Origin: an uncultured Methanosarcinales archaeon
Lineage (GTDB): Archaea > Nanobdellota > Nanobdellia > Woesearchaeales > GW2011-AR9
Reading direction: 5' to 3'
Length of the DNA stretch: 53,172 nucleotides
NCBI GenBank assembly: GCA_964598745.1
Contig: CAZRCV010000005.1
Span: forward strand, 1 to 53,172
A program made the position numbers and the translations under genes. Within the stretch, counting starts at the first letter, position 1. Every line of letters starts with the position of its first letter. The notes below the pieces were generated by a model that was given only the letters and a program-made list of their open reading frames with translations, did not search any database and had not been told where the DNA came from. This document shows, piece after piece, positions 49,173-53,172 of this stretch.

Positions 49173-52100
49173 ATGGTCCTCCGTTCTTTATGTTCTTTAG
49201 TAGCAGCAATGATTGTAGGTTACGCAGTTCCAGCTAAAGCATATGGACAAGATATTGGAAACAACACTAAACCTGTTATCACCAGCACAGCTAGCACCAA
49301 ACCTTTTGAAGACAATTTAATTTTCTTAGGACCTAAAGTTAAAGCAAGAGCGCAAAATTTGGATTTATCGGTTAAACCAGATCCAGCCAATTCCTGTCCC
49401 TATCCTTCATTAATCTTAGAACCTGAACAACCCTTTCCATTCGAACTTGTCGCTTCTCCTAATTTTTTAGAAACAGGGATTAATTCCGAAGATAAAAAAT
49501 CTTCAGATCATTATCAAAGATTAGTATTGGAAATTGTTAGTCCGAATATATCCTGTCTACCTAAGGCTGCAGCGAATTTTACTGATTTAACTTCGCAAAC
49601 AACAGAAATTTCTTTATTTCCAGATTACGGGGATTGGCAAAATAAAACAGGCAGCAGCACCATGGAAATAAGATTAGAATTGCCTGGTGATTTACGCTAT
49701 GTGCTGCTGGGCTCTGATCACAATAATATTATTTATGAAAGGGGTGGCCTAGCTTACGATCTAAAAGACAAACGCATTAGGCTTCACACCGGCGAAGGAA
49801 ATCTCAGCAGACATCTACCCCAGTTAAGTTTAGAACGTCTGGCCATCGGTTCAATGAACTGGCCAGCATTTACTGATGCGATACTGGGAAAGGGAACAGA
49901 TAGTTTAAGACTGGCTACGAACCACTTGGGGAATTCACTAGAAACTTTGGCAAACCAAGTAGTAACCAACCTTAATCTCAGTGATGAAACTGGCGATCTA
50001 AATGCCCGCGCTATTGAATTAACTTTAAAACTGCGCGGCATTTTTGAACAAGTCTTACCACAATATGTTTCTAATGATGGAGTGGTTGACCCGGAAGAGT
50101 GGAGTAAAATCCAAGAGACTATAGAAGGAAAAATCAAGGAGTTTGAAGCGCGAGAATTAAAAACAGAAGAAAGGGAAGGCATAACTAGCGCGATTAATGG
50201 ATTTCGAGAAGAATTTCAGAGCCTGCAGAAAGAACACCCCATTCTAGCAAATATTTGGTCTATCTATGGCTCTGCTGATCCGGCCGCATTAATTAGCTGG
50301 GATGGAATTACTTTAAGAAATTTGATAACCTTTTTTGCAGCTTTAGATCCCGACTTATACACTCTGACAGTTGAAGATAATAAATTAGGATTCAAAACCA
50401 ATCGGCTTAATAGCACGCTAGTAGGACAATCATCTAATTATACTGAATTTACTGATGGAATTAACAGAACTTTTATTGAAACTGCAGCTGGAAGATTAGC
50501 CATGGAAGCTGCAGGCGATATTAGTTTAACTGCAGCTTTAAGCGAAGGTTTGGAAATTGAAGAAATAGTTCCAGAAAAATATCAAAATAGTTATGGTCTT
50601 TTAAAATTAATATTAGGGATAGACCCAAAACTAGTAAATATGACTTTAAACGGCGAAGCGCATTTTGCATCACGGCTGCATGCGGAAAGGATGCGAGGAT
50701 TTAGCATGAGGTGGAACAAAAACAAATTATCTTTAGGCTTAAACATTTCTTTTGGATCATTATATGGCAATTATGCTAACGGACAAGCCCAAGTGGCTGG
50801 TTCTGCCGATAGCCAAAATGATTTAATTAGTGCTTATTTTATGGGGGGTTTGCAGATAGAACAAGTGTTAGGTTCAAAGCAAACCATCAGCCTAAATTTA
50901 GATAAAATGAATAATGTCTTCTGGTTCAATCTTCAGCTAGGAATGGACCTAGAACAAGCCCGGCGGTTAAGAGAATCTTGGCTCGCTGGCGGCGTGTTTA
51001 AAGCCGATTATCGAGGAAATATAAGCCAAAATGCTTATTATTTAGCTCATTCCAAAGATATTACTACTAACAATACCCTTAATCCCCTTGCAGGATTACG
51101 AGTGGGCCGAACACTGGGGTTAGTTGATATCCTAGCCTTTACAGATCTCAGAGAATTAGGCCTGGGCGCCATTTTAGCCAGCCCACGGATCTCAGCCTTA
51201 GCAGAATGCGCATTTATCAATTATTGTCAGCTAACAGCTAGAATAGCTTTGGATAGAGAATTTAACCCAAAAAATGAACGAAACCATTTTTTACGCCTGC
51301 AGCAGTTAGCTAACACCCATTTAGCGGGAGTAGAAGCCATTATAGCTGGCGAGAATCATTACCACACCCTTGCTAATCCTGGCTTACATTTAGAACTTCA
51401 AGCTTATCGAGCTTTAGTTTCACAATTTCCATACCTTACACCCTCTAAAGCTAAATTAAGTTTAGTAATGGTCGAACCAGATAGTGTTGATAGCTTAAAT
51501 TTATATTTTGCATTAGGCTATGACGGAAATTTTGATTCCGTTAACGGTGGATTGATTAATTTAGGATCAAGATATTGGCAAAGTTTCTTTGGTTATACTG
51601 CGACTAAAGATCAGCTGAGGAACTCCAATTCACAATATGGCACTGCCGGGTTAACAGTACATACTAAACCTATCGATATTCTAACTAGAGCAGAACTATA
51701 CCCAGATCCATTGGATGAAGAGCCAGAGGTTAAATCTTCGACCAAAGTTGATCCTAATACCCAACAGAAAATAGAAACTTATAGTTTAAAACATGAAGGA
51801 GAATTTAGGATGTTGGTGGAAATTAGAGCACCCCCTGGGTTTTTAGACGAATTGTTAACAGCAATCCCACGACCAGAATTACGGTTGCTGCAGGTGACAG
51901 CTGAAAAAAGTTTGCTGTTGCTGGAGGGAATTAATGGTGGACTAACCTCAGACTTCACTTTTGGAAGGTTATCGCTGCATCAACAAGTTGGAACTACTTA
52001 TTCCGATGCTAGGGGAACTTCTTTCGATTGGGAAGGAGAAGCTATTTATAGGTTGATTAATGGAGAAATTGGCCCAGCTTTAACTATCTCCAAACAATGG

Positions 52101-52412
52101 AGTCCAGAAAACAATTCTCATCGTCTTTCGCCAGGCCTAGGCTGGCAAGCTGCCAATAAAGGCCATTATTTAAACTTATTAGTTACAGGAATACCACCAC
52201 AATTTTCCTTGCGTTATATTTACGATCCCAAAACTGCAGAATTAGCTCCTTATGTTAAGGCGGGCCTTTCTAATTCCCAAGGACTATTAGAGCTGGGTGT
52301 ACGAACTGGACCCATGATCTTTACTACAGAAGTTGGATTCATTCCAAAAGGTAAACAAGATTTAGAATTTACATTAGGGTTAAAAACAACGGTTGACCTA
52401 ACTTCATTTTAG
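49173..52412 (+). CDS. Large exported protein (1079 aa) with a beta-strand-rich C-terminal half ending in Phe
   Basis: Signal peptide (AKA|YG); alternating hydrophobic/polar strands; TTTATATATA upstream. Confidence 0.75.
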   Translation: MVLRSLCSLVAAMIVGYAVPAKAYGQDIGNNTKPVITSTASTKPFEDNLIFLGPKVKARAQNLDLSVKPDPANSCPYPSLILEPEQPFPFELVASPNFLETGINSEDKKSSDHYQRLVLEIVSPNISCLPKAAANFTDLTSQTTEISLFPDYGDWQNKTGSSTMEIRLELPGDLRYVLLGSDHNNIIYERGGLAYDLKDKRIRLHTGEGNLSRHLPQLSLERLAIGSMNWPAFTDAILGKGTDSLRLATNHLGNSLETLANQVVTNLNLSDETGDLNARAIELTLKLRGIFEQVLPQYVSNDGVVDPEEWSKIQETIEGKIKEFEARELKTEEREGITSAINGFREEFQSLQKEHPILANIWSIYGSADPAALISWDGITLRNLITFFAALDPDLYTLTVEDNKLGFKTNRLNSTLVGQSSNYTEFTDGINRTFIETAAGRLAMEAAGDISLTAALSEGLEIEEIVPEKYQNSYGLLKLILGIDPKLVNMTLNGEAHFASRLHAERMRGFSMRWNKNKLSLGLNISFGSLYGNYANGQAQVAGSADSQNDLISAYFMGGLQIEQVLGSKQTISLNLDKMNNVFWFNLQLGMDLEQARRLRESWLAGGVFKADYRGNISQNAYYLAHSKDITTNNTLNPLAGLRVGRTLGLVDILAFTDLRELGLGAILASPRISALAECAFINYCQLTARIALDREFNPKNERNHFLRLQQLANTHLAGVEAIIAGENHYHTLANPGLHLELQAYRALVSQFPYLTPSKAKLSLVMVEPDSVDSLNLYFALGYDGNFDSVNGGLINLGSRYWQSFFGYTATKDQLRNSNSQYGTAGLTVHTKPIDILTRAELYPDPLDEEPEVKSSTKVDPNTQQKIETYSLKHEGEFRMLVEIRAPPGFLDELLTAIPRPELRLLQVTAEKSLLLLEGINGGLTSDFTFGRLSLHQQVGTTYSDARGTSFDWEGEAIYRLINGEIGPALTISKQWSPENNSHRLSPGLGWQAANKGHYLNLLVTGIPPQFSLRYIYDPKTAELAPYVKAGLSNSQGLLELGVRTGPMIFTTEVGFIPKGKQDLEFTLGLKTTVDLTSF

Positions 52413-52783
52413 AGAAATTTTGAAAACATAGATTTTCCTATTACAATTAGGTCTTAAAAGGATAGGATAAAAAGTGAGGGCTCCAAAGAGGGGGTGAGGG
52501 TGGTAGAATAATTCTATGGAGCCCACGGGATTAGGAAATCCGAACCCCTTGCACTGGATTCGGAAAGTGCATACTCAACGTTGATTACAATTGCACCTCT
52601 TTTTCCTTATTTGTGCATAAATGTAGACAAATATATAAATGTTGCTATTCTGTATACTAGCTTACTAAAAATACCTCTTAGGTCTAAGAAATTAAGAAGA
52701 ACAGCTTATTTTTGCCAGCTGCAGTACAGACTTCGTTAAGAAATCAAAGGGCTGATTTTGTACTACTAGTAAATGGCGAAATA

Positions 52784-52794
52784 TTTAAATATAA
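52784..52794 (+). promoter_or_regulatory. Archaeal BRE/TATA-like element upstream of the AAA+ gene
   Basis: CGAAATATTTAAATATAA about 40-50 nt upstream of ATG 52836. Confidence 0.5.
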
Positions 52795-52835
52795 CCTTTA
52801 ATTTGCTAACTGGTTTATCAAAATTCATAGTCAAA

Positions 52836-53172
52836 ATGCCAGAAACAAATTATGAAACCATGTTCGGAATGATTGGAACAAGTGAACCGATGTTAACAGT
52901 TTATGACCGTATTCGTAGAGTAGCTGACAGCATTAGTAGAACAGCCCAAGCTGGTGCCACAGTGCACATTTCCGGCGAGCGTGGAACTGGAAAAGAACTG
53001 GTAGCTACCGCCTTGCATTCTGCCGGTGCCAGAAAAGGACCTTTTATTGATGTTAACGCCGCAGAGTATAAGGATGATGATACCTTGTTACGAGCGGACT
53101 TATTTGGAATAGGCAATAAGGTTGCGACCGGTGTTGAAAGTAGACCAGGATACTTTGAACAAGCCACAGGTG
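52836..53172 (+). CDS. Sigma54-interaction (bacterial enhancer-binding protein-like) AAA+ ATPase, truncated by the window end; absent from the ORF track
   Basis: MPETNYETMFGMIGTSEPMLTVYDRIRRVA...TVHISGERGTGKELVATALH...RKGPFIDVNAA...ADLFGIGNKVATGVESRPGYFEQATG. Confidence 0.88.
   Translation, partial: MPETNYETMFGMIGTSEPMLTVYDRIRRVADSISRTAQAGATVHISGERGTGKELVATALHSAGARKGPFIDVNAAEYKDDDTLLRADLFGIGNKVATGVESRPGYFEQATG

Follow-up and report, generated by a model that had tools for sequence, protein, structure and literature searches.

A sensor-less homologue of bacterial enhancer-binding proteins in a Woesearchaeales genome with no recognisable sigma-54

The DNA analyzed here (the window) is 53,172 nucleotides long and makes up the whole of contig C5 (CAZRCV010000005.1) in assembly GCA_964598745.1. 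This assembly of 1,001,444 bases in 46 contigs, scored 99.08% complete and 0.13% contaminated, carries the GenBank name of an uncultured Methanosarcinales archaeon and is placed by GTDB in the Woesearchaeales. A gene resembling those of the bacterial enhancer-binding proteins (bEBPs) begins at the 3' end of the window. To our knowledge, no other bacterial activators hydrolyse ATP in order to open the promoter complex, and the bEBPs are the textbook partners of one sigma factor. An earlier note, made from the sequence of the window, had described the gene as encoding a sigma-54-activator-type AAA+ protein with no sensor domain and an altered GAFTGA loop, and had proposed that it is a repurposed ATPase, either a sigma-54-independent regulator or an effector acting in a bacterial host. 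The features of the gene are as follows.

52836..53172, plus strand: 5' part of the bEBP-like gene, codons 1-112; the open reading frame (ORF) is open at its 3' end and matches Pfam PF00158 (E 5e-16).
G000:C3:76080-76853 (= L003:9227-10000:-), minus strand: remainder of the gene, to codon 351 plus stop, outside the window; C-terminal half of PF00158 and AAA_lid_14.
52780..52796, plus strand: promoter-like element, cgaaatatttaaatata, purine-rich (like a TFB-recognition element, BRE) and then an A/T-rich TATA-like box; read from the sequence.
52974..52997, plus strand: Walker A/P-loop codons G47-E54, GERGTGKE; from the translation, with the conserved columns kept.
53118..53135, plus strand: L1-loop codons K95-V100, KVATGV, at the place of GAFTGA; from alignments.
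53118..53172, plus strand: last 55 bases of the window, identical to the reverse-complemented end of contig C3 (C3:76799-76853); the assembly breaks inside the gene.

The reading frame (52773/52836..53171, plus strand, in the ORF list) is still open where the window ends. An ATG at 52773 is the sole earlier in-frame start and would add 21 residues to the protein that begins at ATG 52836. The motifs of a bEBP-type ATPase are present as the earlier note had reported them, namely MIGTSEPM (residues 12-19), GERGTGKELVA (47-57), PFIDVNAA (69-76), LFG (89-91), KVATGV (95-100) and GYFEQA (105-110). Residues 24-112 correspond to positions 6-94 of the 168 positions of PF00158 (Sigma54_activat), and the second half of this profile is found in the C3 part (E 4e-23). 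The two parts score 59.3 and 82.4 bits, respectively, with a cut-off of 20.2, and AAA_lid_14 in the C3 part reaches 74.3 bits with a cut-off of 27 (E 7e-21). The AAA+ domain begins at about residue 10 and the homologues start likewise; because only 21 residues could be added upstream, there is no room for a receiver or GAF domain, in line with the earlier note.

The overlap between C5 and C3 is exactly 55 bases long and begins on a codon boundary, and within the assembly this 55-mer is present only in these two contigs; it looks like a k-mer overlap of the assembler. The frame continues for 257 codons on the minus strand of C3 and then meets a stop. The merged protein of 351 amino acids is intact, and its alignment with complete homologues of 330-342 amino acids is ungapped at the junction, which excludes the frameshifted pseudogene that the earlier note had considered. 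We also drew on contigs assembled per run from four DNA runs of one groundwater-metagenome study, which are fragmented at a depth of 2-6x. X1 record 3 (524 nt) spans positions 52480-53003 and runs from the core of a conserved upstream element into the first 168 nt of the gene. X3 record 16 covers 53007-53172 and 80 letters past the window end, and X1 record 6 runs 272 letters past it, the onward destination of either extension not being shown. At this depth none of the per-run contigs spans the whole stretch in one piece. The GC content of the gene (0.415) and that at third codon positions (GC3, 0.293) lie at the 87th and 15th percentiles of the genome's 345 long ORFs, which have a GC of 0.386 ± 0.029 and a GC3 of 0.336 ± 0.043. 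The composition is within the range of the genome and ameliorated to the host.

The promoter-like element sits 40-56 nt before ATG 52836. Comparable elements were seen about 26-55 nt before the start in five homologues, and the archaeal BRE/TATA-like sequence described in the earlier note is thus borne out.

The window's genome encodes the TATA-binding protein (TBP) twice, in tandem on contig C1. It gave no match to Sigma70_r2, and no sigma-54 DNA-binding or core-binding domain (PF04552, PF04963) was found in it even at E ≤ 1. The family profile of a truncated sigma-54-like protein of about 275 amino acids, called mini sigma-54 here and described below, had no match in this genome; Region-I-like and C-terminal-like halves of that profile, run with unfiltered HMMER over 7,572 frames, reached best E values of 0.053 and 0.097, which were taken as chance. 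Because neither sigma-54 nor the truncated sigma-54-like protein nor sigma-70 was found in the genome, the protein presumably cannot act as a sigma-54 activator here. Judged by gene content, any function it has in this genome must be independent of sigma-54. The search for rpoN is consistent with the premise of the earlier note, and the sigma-54-independence that it proposed is upheld for this TBP-bearing genome. PspA (PF04012) gave two weak matches in the genome, 21.7 and 17.6 bits, both below the cut-off of 33.9 bits, and no small-subunit ribosomal RNA is assembled in it. As a candidate second bEBP, the next-best PF00158 match, a 438-amino-acid frame on contig C25, was rejected; from its translation we take it to be a probable Lon-type protease. 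The other matches were weak cross-hits in long frames.

Homologues of the gene occur in other archaea. The C3 part, used as a query, found one in 3 of the 36 other genomes of the same family. With the complete homologue from genome G029 as the query (E ≤ 1e-15), a match was obtained in 26 of 401 genomes of the phylum, the window's own genome (G000) included. These genomes belong to several families, orders and classes, and 6 of the 41 other same-family genomes are among them. The G029 homologue lies on a contig of 1.47 Mb, and its protein is 100% identical to database entry P0001. TBP was found in 26 of the 27 carriers (the 26 genomes and G013), and in G029, G219 and G271 it is on one contig with the bEBP-like gene; the count of 26, one of these same-contig cases and a loop-deleted form mentioned below rest partly on G271, which is flagged as unpublished. 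This spread through the phylum, with three homologues that share a contig with TBP, shows that the gene is not a chimera. Together with X1 record 3 and the host-like GC and GC3, this excludes the chimeric junction near 52.4-52.8 kb that the earlier note had raised. The gene is neither an assembly chimera nor a pseudogene. NCBI-type automatic naming of such archaeal proteins as "sigma-54-dependent" is almost certainly wrong for these genomes.

No recognisable sensor domain was detected in the 28 archaeal homologues at E ≤ 1e-3, and in most of them the AAA+ domain opens the protein; translation was taken to begin at the first Met of each open frame, which may make the N-termini appear longer than they are. 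Pfam HTH_8 was called in 13 of the 28, including G003 and G401a, which belong to the window's own clade. The surroundings of the homologues vary. A convergent gene of about 432 amino acids, presumably Asn/Asp-tRNA synthetase-like from its translation, was considered as an operon partner; it is found in 3 of 7 genomes (G003, G091, G307) and was taken as plain synteny. In G214 (L064:49-4239) the bEBP-like gene stands directly after a SUF Fe-S operon that contains SufBD, a class-V aminotransferase, a NifU-like protein and an FeS-assembly protein. In G013 (L017:1228-2831) it is followed by BolA and another ORF, which by reading we take to be CGFS monothiol glutaredoxin-like. Both genomes also encode a mini sigma-54. 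A link to Fe-S metabolism was not retained, as such neighbours recur at no other locus checked (27 with 1.5-kb flanks, five of these also with about 8 kb, and both ends of the window gene).

The sigma-54 DNA-binding domain scored above cut-off in only 3 of the 27 bEBP-carrying genomes, at the following loci.

L048:1036-1869 (G013), plus strand: mini sigma-54; Pfam sigma-54 DNA-binding domain above cut-off.
L047:1513-2325 (G214), minus strand: mini sigma-54; Pfam sigma-54 DNA-binding domain above cut-off.
L049:41-742 (G303), minus strand: mini sigma-54; Pfam sigma-54 DNA-binding domain above cut-off.

The three proteins have 277, 270 and 233 amino acids, are about 41% identical to one another and match only positions ~258-425 of the 434-position rpoN model. 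When the profile of the family was compared with an E. coli-type sigma-54, residues 1-66 (Region I, weakly, with 7.9 bits) and 272-463 (28 bits) were matched. Mini sigma-54 thus skips Region II and the core-binding domain and keeps the half with the long helix, the helix-turn-helix (HTH) and the RpoN box. The family forms 49 clusters in the protein collection, nearly all of 253-290 amino acids and on contigs of up to 417 kb, and the one organism name among these clusters is Candidatus Nanoarchaeia archaeon. Within the phylum, 6 of 401 genomes encode the protein (one of them, G272, is flagged as unpublished), and 2 of these 6 also have a bEBP-like gene; the two families are only loosely linked. 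Further mini sigma-54 loci are L055-L058. The general premise of the earlier note that archaea lack sigma-54 holds for the window's genome but not for these six, which encode a truncated sigma-54-like protein.

Next we consider the L1 loop, which in GAFTGA proteins is one residue longer than in the window according to the alignments. KVATGV matches the variant GVATGV at positions 2-6. Among 29 archaeal sequences (the 28 homologues and the window), five have a VATGV loop (G000, G029, G307, G091 and G003), and the metagenome proteins P0002-P0004 share this loop, as do bacterial proteins, DVUA0100 among them. Other archaeal loops read VASSV (G401a), IASNV (G214) and TNFAGS (G193), and the loop is deleted in G271. 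A loop of the F/Y-T type is kept by 20 of the 29 (loci L024-L043, among them G205, G219, G149, G226, G115, G363, G117 and G303): GAFTGA in nine, GSFTGA in three, GAYTGA in two, and NAFTGA, GSYTGA, GSFTDA, GAYTDA, GAFTDA and NTFTGV in one each. Genome G401 (L022, L044, L046) has three paralogues of the window's clade with the loops VASSV, NTFTGV and GAFTGA, and the loop can therefore change within the clade.

A profile of the VATGV clade was searched against 1.84 billion representatives and gave 207,201 matches at E ≤ 0.001. In the 189 AAA+ domains of the best 150 proteins, a sample biased toward the query's own loop, 32 loops were of the type [V/T/I]-A-[T/S]-[G/S]-V, 126 of the type [A/S]-[F/Y]-T-[G/D/N] and 31 of other types. 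The variant loop occurs in proteins with FHA, GAF, TPR or kinase-TPR-GAF N-termini (a kinase-fused architecture is seen in P0172 and P0221) and in stand-alone forms; one such protein bears the name of a deltaproteobacterium. In the available text of Kazakov et al. (2015, PMC4641369), the megaplasmid regulator DVUA0100 of D. vulgaris is listed with GVATGV and predicted to be sigma-54-dependent; its loop substitutions are argued there not to prevent activation, on the basis of predicted sigma-54 promoters and a predicted binding motif at type III secretion operons, and that text describes no loop experiment. The regulator gene beside sctU on plasmid pDV encodes 575 amino acids with the sequence FGIERGVATGV and an HTH_8 match (4e-13). 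Its identification with DVUA0100 rests on the loop, the product name and the place beside type III secretion genes, since the old locus tag is absent from the record.

By these comparisons GVATGV/TATGV is the signature of an existing bacterial bEBP subfamily and not an archaeal adaptation, and the loop without Phe is a trait of that subfamily that gives no sign of repurposing. The earlier note had treated the altered loop as evidence of repurposing; this argument falls, with 32 of 189 loops in the sample, and DVUA0100, being of the same kind. Within the window's clade of 10 sequences, the five loop columns have a mean identity of 0.86 vs 0.69 over all 233 columns, and 34 of 229 five-column windows are as conserved as the L1 loop or more.

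The phylogenetic relationship of these proteins was analyzed with an IQ-TREE quick tree (LG+G4) of 103 AAA+ cores from which the L1 columns had been removed. The rows were the 29 archaeal-genome sequences, the metagenome proteins P0003 and P0004, which group with these, 32 other VATGV-type domains and 40 random canonical domains; P0123 and P0147, which duplicate G401a and G003, were not included. In this tree the window's protein is one of 10 sequences forming a clade (SH-aLRT, the Shimodaira-Hasegawa-like approximate likelihood-ratio test, 97) that consists of eight VAT-type archaeal sequences, G401b (NTFTGV) and G401c (GAFTGA). Pairwise identity in this clade is 44-72% with a mean of 0.56, and one genome contributes three paralogues. 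Its sister group contains G214 and the stand-alone proteins P0160, P0161, P0165 and P0209/P0271, and the 16 rows together have a support of 98. The origin of P0160, P0161, P0165 and P0209 was sought by a scan of a genome collection, which gave only three gammaproteobacterial loci at 39-40% identity, and by a cluster look-up, which returned no names. A separate group (support 92) is formed by 21 bacterial VATGV domains, the DVUA0100-like one included; the backbone of the tree is unresolved.

A single clade of the 43 VATGV-lineage rows, set against the other 60, was not rejected by the approximately unbiased (AU) test (p 0.82), where the tested group was defined after the free tree had been seen and comprises the loop trait plus two nested non-VAT paralogues. 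The tree constrained to this clade was 43.8 log-likelihood units better than the free quick-search tree. As far as the sequences allow a judgement, the variant loop most likely has a single origin among bacteria, in which its architectural diversity lies, and the archaeal clade most likely inherited it. Woesearchaeota-like DPANN archaea most likely acquired the branch from bacteria, after which it diversified within them; the direction of transfer, from bacteria to archaea, is the one that we infer.

The ATPase of the window is largely complete in its motifs. Forty-eight columns reach 90% conservation or more across 67 bacterial domains, and the window keeps 40 of them and its relatives 40-45; the degenerate archaeal copies G193 and G271 keep 29 and 36. 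The Walker A columns G-x-x-G-x-G-K-E, conserved in at least 96% of the 67 bacterial AAA+ rows, are all kept, and so are Walker A K53, switch N74, Walker B D118/E119, the arginine fingers R175/R181 and sensor II R238. The changed positions are K95 (otherwise the initial Gly of the loop), A161 (otherwise Thr, in sensor I), M156 (otherwise Arg, in the strand before sensor I) and five conservative or peripheral ones.

A structure model was made of the 257 C3-encoded residues only, with an alignment of 23 relatives. It has a mean pLDDT (predicted local distance difference test) of 87 and shows a beta-hairpin before sensor I and, at the end, helices 195-217, 220-227 and 231-252 with block-mean pLDDT values of 81-95. 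The best Foldseek matches of the model were ZraR, NtrX, NtrC4, LuxO, NtrC1, FleQ, FlrC and VpsR, all of the bEBP type. The alignments with ZraR and NtrX, whose crystals include the DNA-binding domain, extend over 229-243 columns and are long enough for the C-terminal helices, and NCBIfam alignments to NtrC, NorR, TyrR and PrdR reach the C-terminus. The DNA-binding module of the window's protein is thus a predicted one, supported by clade homology and the model and not by a family match. The C-terminal HTH for which the earlier note had looked to the rest of the gene is represented by the three modelled helices on C3, but not by a call of HTH_8. The architecture is predicted to be a clade-6 AAA+ domain with an L1 loop and a hairpin before sensor I, a lid, a linker and a C-terminal HTH module, with no sensor.

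On the upstream side the gene's neighbour is an ORF of 1,079 amino acids (window 49173-52412, plus strand) with a hydrophobic leader-like N-terminus, predicted to be secreted; it has no Pfam match at E ≤ 0.01. Downstream, C3 encodes an XPD-type helicase, a small winged-helix protein, split transketolase genes and VKOR. A GC-rich element at about 52459-52663 lies inside the 423-nt gap upstream of the gene.

Window 52459-52663, minus strand: candidate small RNA gene, from conservation and fold.

Stretches of 20-72 nt of the element recur at 78-100% identity in 17 of 24 genomes of the same family, usually in one copy, and in 0 of 16 genomes of other families. Scans of 52300-52900 against Rfam and for tRNAs found no match. 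Its minus strand reads as an A/T-rich promoter-like block, hairpins and a T-run. In the core, a stem (GGGCTCC/GGAGCCC) that shows compensatory changes in two genomes encloses an invariant C-rich loop of 18 nt. When folded, the minus strand has a z-score of -2.7 and the plus strand one of -0.9. No constant neighbouring gene of the element was seen in the genomes compared, and its 32-nt core (52478-52509) is also present in high-depth contigs of other organisms from the same metagenome runs. The two same-genus genomes, G001 and G002, have both this element and the large secreted-protein gene, and in both of them homologues of the 1,079-amino-acid ORF adjoin the candidate small RNA. Since the bEBP-like gene was not found in these genomes, it lies at a synteny break.

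Our preferred explanation, to which we give a probability of roughly 55%, is that the gene encodes a horizontally acquired, sensor-less bEBP homologue that works as an ATP-dependent, sigma-54-independent DNA-binding regulator. The protein would form an oligomer that depends on ATP, and its C-terminal module would recognise specific sites in the DNA. By analogy with related regulators, the bound protein could then modulate archaeal promoters that depend on TBP/TFB, either by activation or by repression. Without a sensor domain, its activity might be set by its own expression or by a partner in trans. We favor a regulator because a motif-complete ATPase, a predicted DNA-binding tail and an archaeal-type promoter-like element remain, and because sigma-54-independent relatives of the bEBPs bind DNA. 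Bacterial-type HTH regulators commonly work on archaeal promoters.

A number of observations weigh against a DNA-binding regulator in this genome. The gene was not found in G001 and G002, which are 89% and 84% complete, no conserved operon partner was seen at the loci compared, and the search for a shared palindromic operator upstream of six clade genes returned only AT-rich chance palindromes private to one locus. HTH_8 is not called in the C-terminus of the window's protein, where only HTH_29 (E 0.0054) and HTH_1 (E 0.012) appear below threshold. The window's copy is the most divergent of its clade: sensor I is Ala161 where the rest of the clade has Ser, the change of Arg to Met156 in the strand before sensor I is private to it, GESG has become GERG, and there is a 7-residue insertion. 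Finally, the preservation of the loop (0.86 vs 0.69) suggests that it still does something that a plain DNA-binding regulator would not need, and the known sigma-54-independent relatives have mostly deleted the L1 loop that the archaeal clade keeps.

The last two points lead to a different view of the protein as a mechanical remodeller, in which the conserved L1 loop engages an archaeal target other than sigma-54 (a basal factor, the polymerase or promoter DNA) and ATP hydrolysis drives a step of initiation. The loop is near full length and better conserved than the domain average, although no sigma-54 is seen in the genomes of this clade. The catalytic residues are also preserved, and 20 of 29 archaeal sequences retain an F/Y-T loop, yet only 3 of 27 genomes have a sigma-54-like gene. 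The L1 and L2 loops of bEBPs are also described as touching promoter DNA at -12/-11 (PMC7175178, in the part consulted). We nevertheless regard a remodeller as unlikely, if worth keeping in mind, and even this standing is owed mainly to the fact that the archaea keep a loop that atypical bacterial regulators mostly deleted. No candidate partner emerged: the genome has no Region-I-like frame, no conserved neighbour of the gene and no PspA above cut-off. Moreover, the conservation of the loop is above average but not extreme, and the loop may serve only for coupling within the ATPase ring. A bolder form of this idea, rather improbable as a whole, holds that DPANN archaea run an ATP-driven, bEBP-based gate on archaeal transcription and that some part of the archaeal initiation machinery is what the L1 loop acts on; a few lineages would use a sigma-54 remnant for this, reduced to the activator-contacting Region I and the promoter-binding half, without the part that holds on to bacterial polymerase, and acting as a DNA-bound lock that the ATPase opens, and the window's orphan copy would be a form that has dispensed with the lock. 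Intact bEBP-type ATPases with loops of the GAFTGA type or with GVATGV occur in about 6% of the genomes of the phylum, and nearly all of these genomes are without sigma-54.

The divergence of the window's copy, which has the longest end branch in its clade (0.61-0.73), could also mean that the gene is a relic in decay, derived from a regulator that serves other lineages, and that it is intact here by chance with no present function. The private changes at conserved sites, Thr to Ala in sensor I and Arg to Met156, fit this view, as do the failure to find the gene in the two same-genus genomes and the patchy distribution of the family (6 of 41 other same-family genomes). We think it improbable, given 351 uninterrupted codons in a streamlined 1-Mb genome, a share of near-invariant positions (40 of 48) in the same range as in the relatives, a promoter-like element and a composition ameliorated to the host. 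It is more doubtful still that the protein has a sigma-54-type partner after all, either unassembled between the 46 contigs or too diverged to be recognised. The truncated sigma-54-like gene of 6 of 401 related genomes, which in G214 shares a contig with the bEBP-like gene at a distance of 7.5 kb, and the prediction of sigma-54-dependence for the bacterial GVATGV protein DVUA0100 (PMC4641369, in its available text) speak for such a partner. The 99.08% completeness speaks against it, and so do the empty searches with PF04552/PF04963 at E ≤ 1 and with the family profile and its halves under unfiltered HMMER. Furthermore, none was found in the other four VATGV genomes (G029, G307, G091, G003) or in G401, and only 2 of the 6 mini-sigma-54 genomes in the phylum sample carry a bEBP-like gene.

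That the gene is mis-assembled or mis-binned bacterial sequence, or a secreted effector aimed at a bacterial host as the earlier note had suggested, is very improbable and largely refuted already. The family is indeed overwhelmingly bacterial, as its 207,201 representatives at E ≤ 0.001 illustrate. However, X1 record 3 joins the start of the gene to an element conserved in 17 of 24 same-family archaeal genomes, both flanks carry archaeal-type genes, GC and GC3 are host-like, and close homologues lie deep in archaeal contigs. An effector is further contradicted by an N-terminus without a leader peptide that is the AAA+ domain itself from residue 10, by the protein's own predicted DNA-binding module, by the chromosomal place of the gene and by its archaeal-type promoter elements.

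Motif-complete bEBPs that are native in archaea without sigma-54 or a bacterial polymerase amount to a natural experiment on a motor without its sole known substrate. Should the archaeal copies be simple DNA-binding regulators, atypical enhancer-binding proteins would be known from two domains of life; should the conserved loop act on an archaeal target, archaea would have a new way of controlling transcription. The occurrence of GVATGV in bacteria raises the question of whether that loop engages sigma-54. Given the truncated sigma-54-like family, archaea cannot, in terms of gene content, strictly be said to lack sigma-54.

Among known systems, the group 4 bEBPs such as PspF and HrpR/HrpS are alike in having no N-terminal regulatory domain, a clade-6 AAA+ domain, a C-terminal HTH, which in the window's protein is a predicted one, and a similar size (PMC7175178, in the part consulted). 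The pspF models of NCBIfam match the G029 homologue with 1.6e-58 and the C3 part with 3.6e-36, neither reaching the equivalog cut-off. The loop of PspF is GAFTGA, and under the control of PspA that protein acts on the sigma-54 polymerase, whereas the window's protein has KVATGV in a genome with no sigma-54 and no PspA above cut-off, and by sequence its closest solved relatives are NifA and ZraR, not PspF. The regulator DVUA0100 of D. vulgaris (Nitratidesulfovibrio) shares the L1 loop, and both proteins have AAA+, a lid and an HTH, the last being a predicted one in the window's protein. It differs by its long N-terminal region, its operon with predicted sigma-54 promoters and its sigma-54-bearing host (PMC4641369, in its available text). 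More generally, bacterial GVATGV members carry FHA, GAF, TPR or kinase domains, whereas the archaeal clade is without these and without sigma-54.

TyrR is presumably to be counted among the sigma-54-independent relatives of the bEBPs. NtrC of R. capsulatus, NtrC of Caulobacter, NtrX and VpsR of V. cholerae are GAFTGA-less relatives that act at sigma-70 promoters, and some proteins of this kind need ATP binding rather than hydrolysis, according to the accessible part of a preprint (bioRxiv 10.1101/2023.06.06.543975). The window's protein resembles them in combining AAA+ and a predicted HTH, in its bEBP descent and, by analogy, in its proposed binding to DNA at the promoters of another initiation system. 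As described in the same source, their L1 loop is deleted or shortened, they work with a sigma-70 polymerase and most have sensor domains; the window's clade, by contrast, has no sensor domain, retains the loop in conserved form and belongs to organisms with an archaeal polymerase.

Genes for bacterial sigma-70 have been reported in Woesearchaeota alongside TBP, TFB and TFE, with an unclear mode of action (Castelle et al. 2021, PMC8204110, in the text consulted). They are a precedent for bacterial transcription components in DPANN archaea but belong to a different protein family, and unlike in those cases the window's genome has no Sigma70_r2 match. The main text of that paper, as far as consulted, makes no mention of sigma-54 or NtrC-type ATPases, which its supplementary tables, outside our scope, might list. 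We found no description of bEBP-type or sigma-54-like genes in DPANN archaea in the literature searched, which did not extend to the supplementary tables of DPANN papers, and papers naming both "sigma54" and "DPANN" treat other matters in the portions that were accessible. Lacking two features, the exact GAFTGA and a sigma-54 in the genome, the protein should be filed as a bEBP homologue and not as a sigma-54 activator. By domain content it belongs to the bEBP superfamily, and it is closest to group 4 in architecture and like the DVUA0100 group in its loop.

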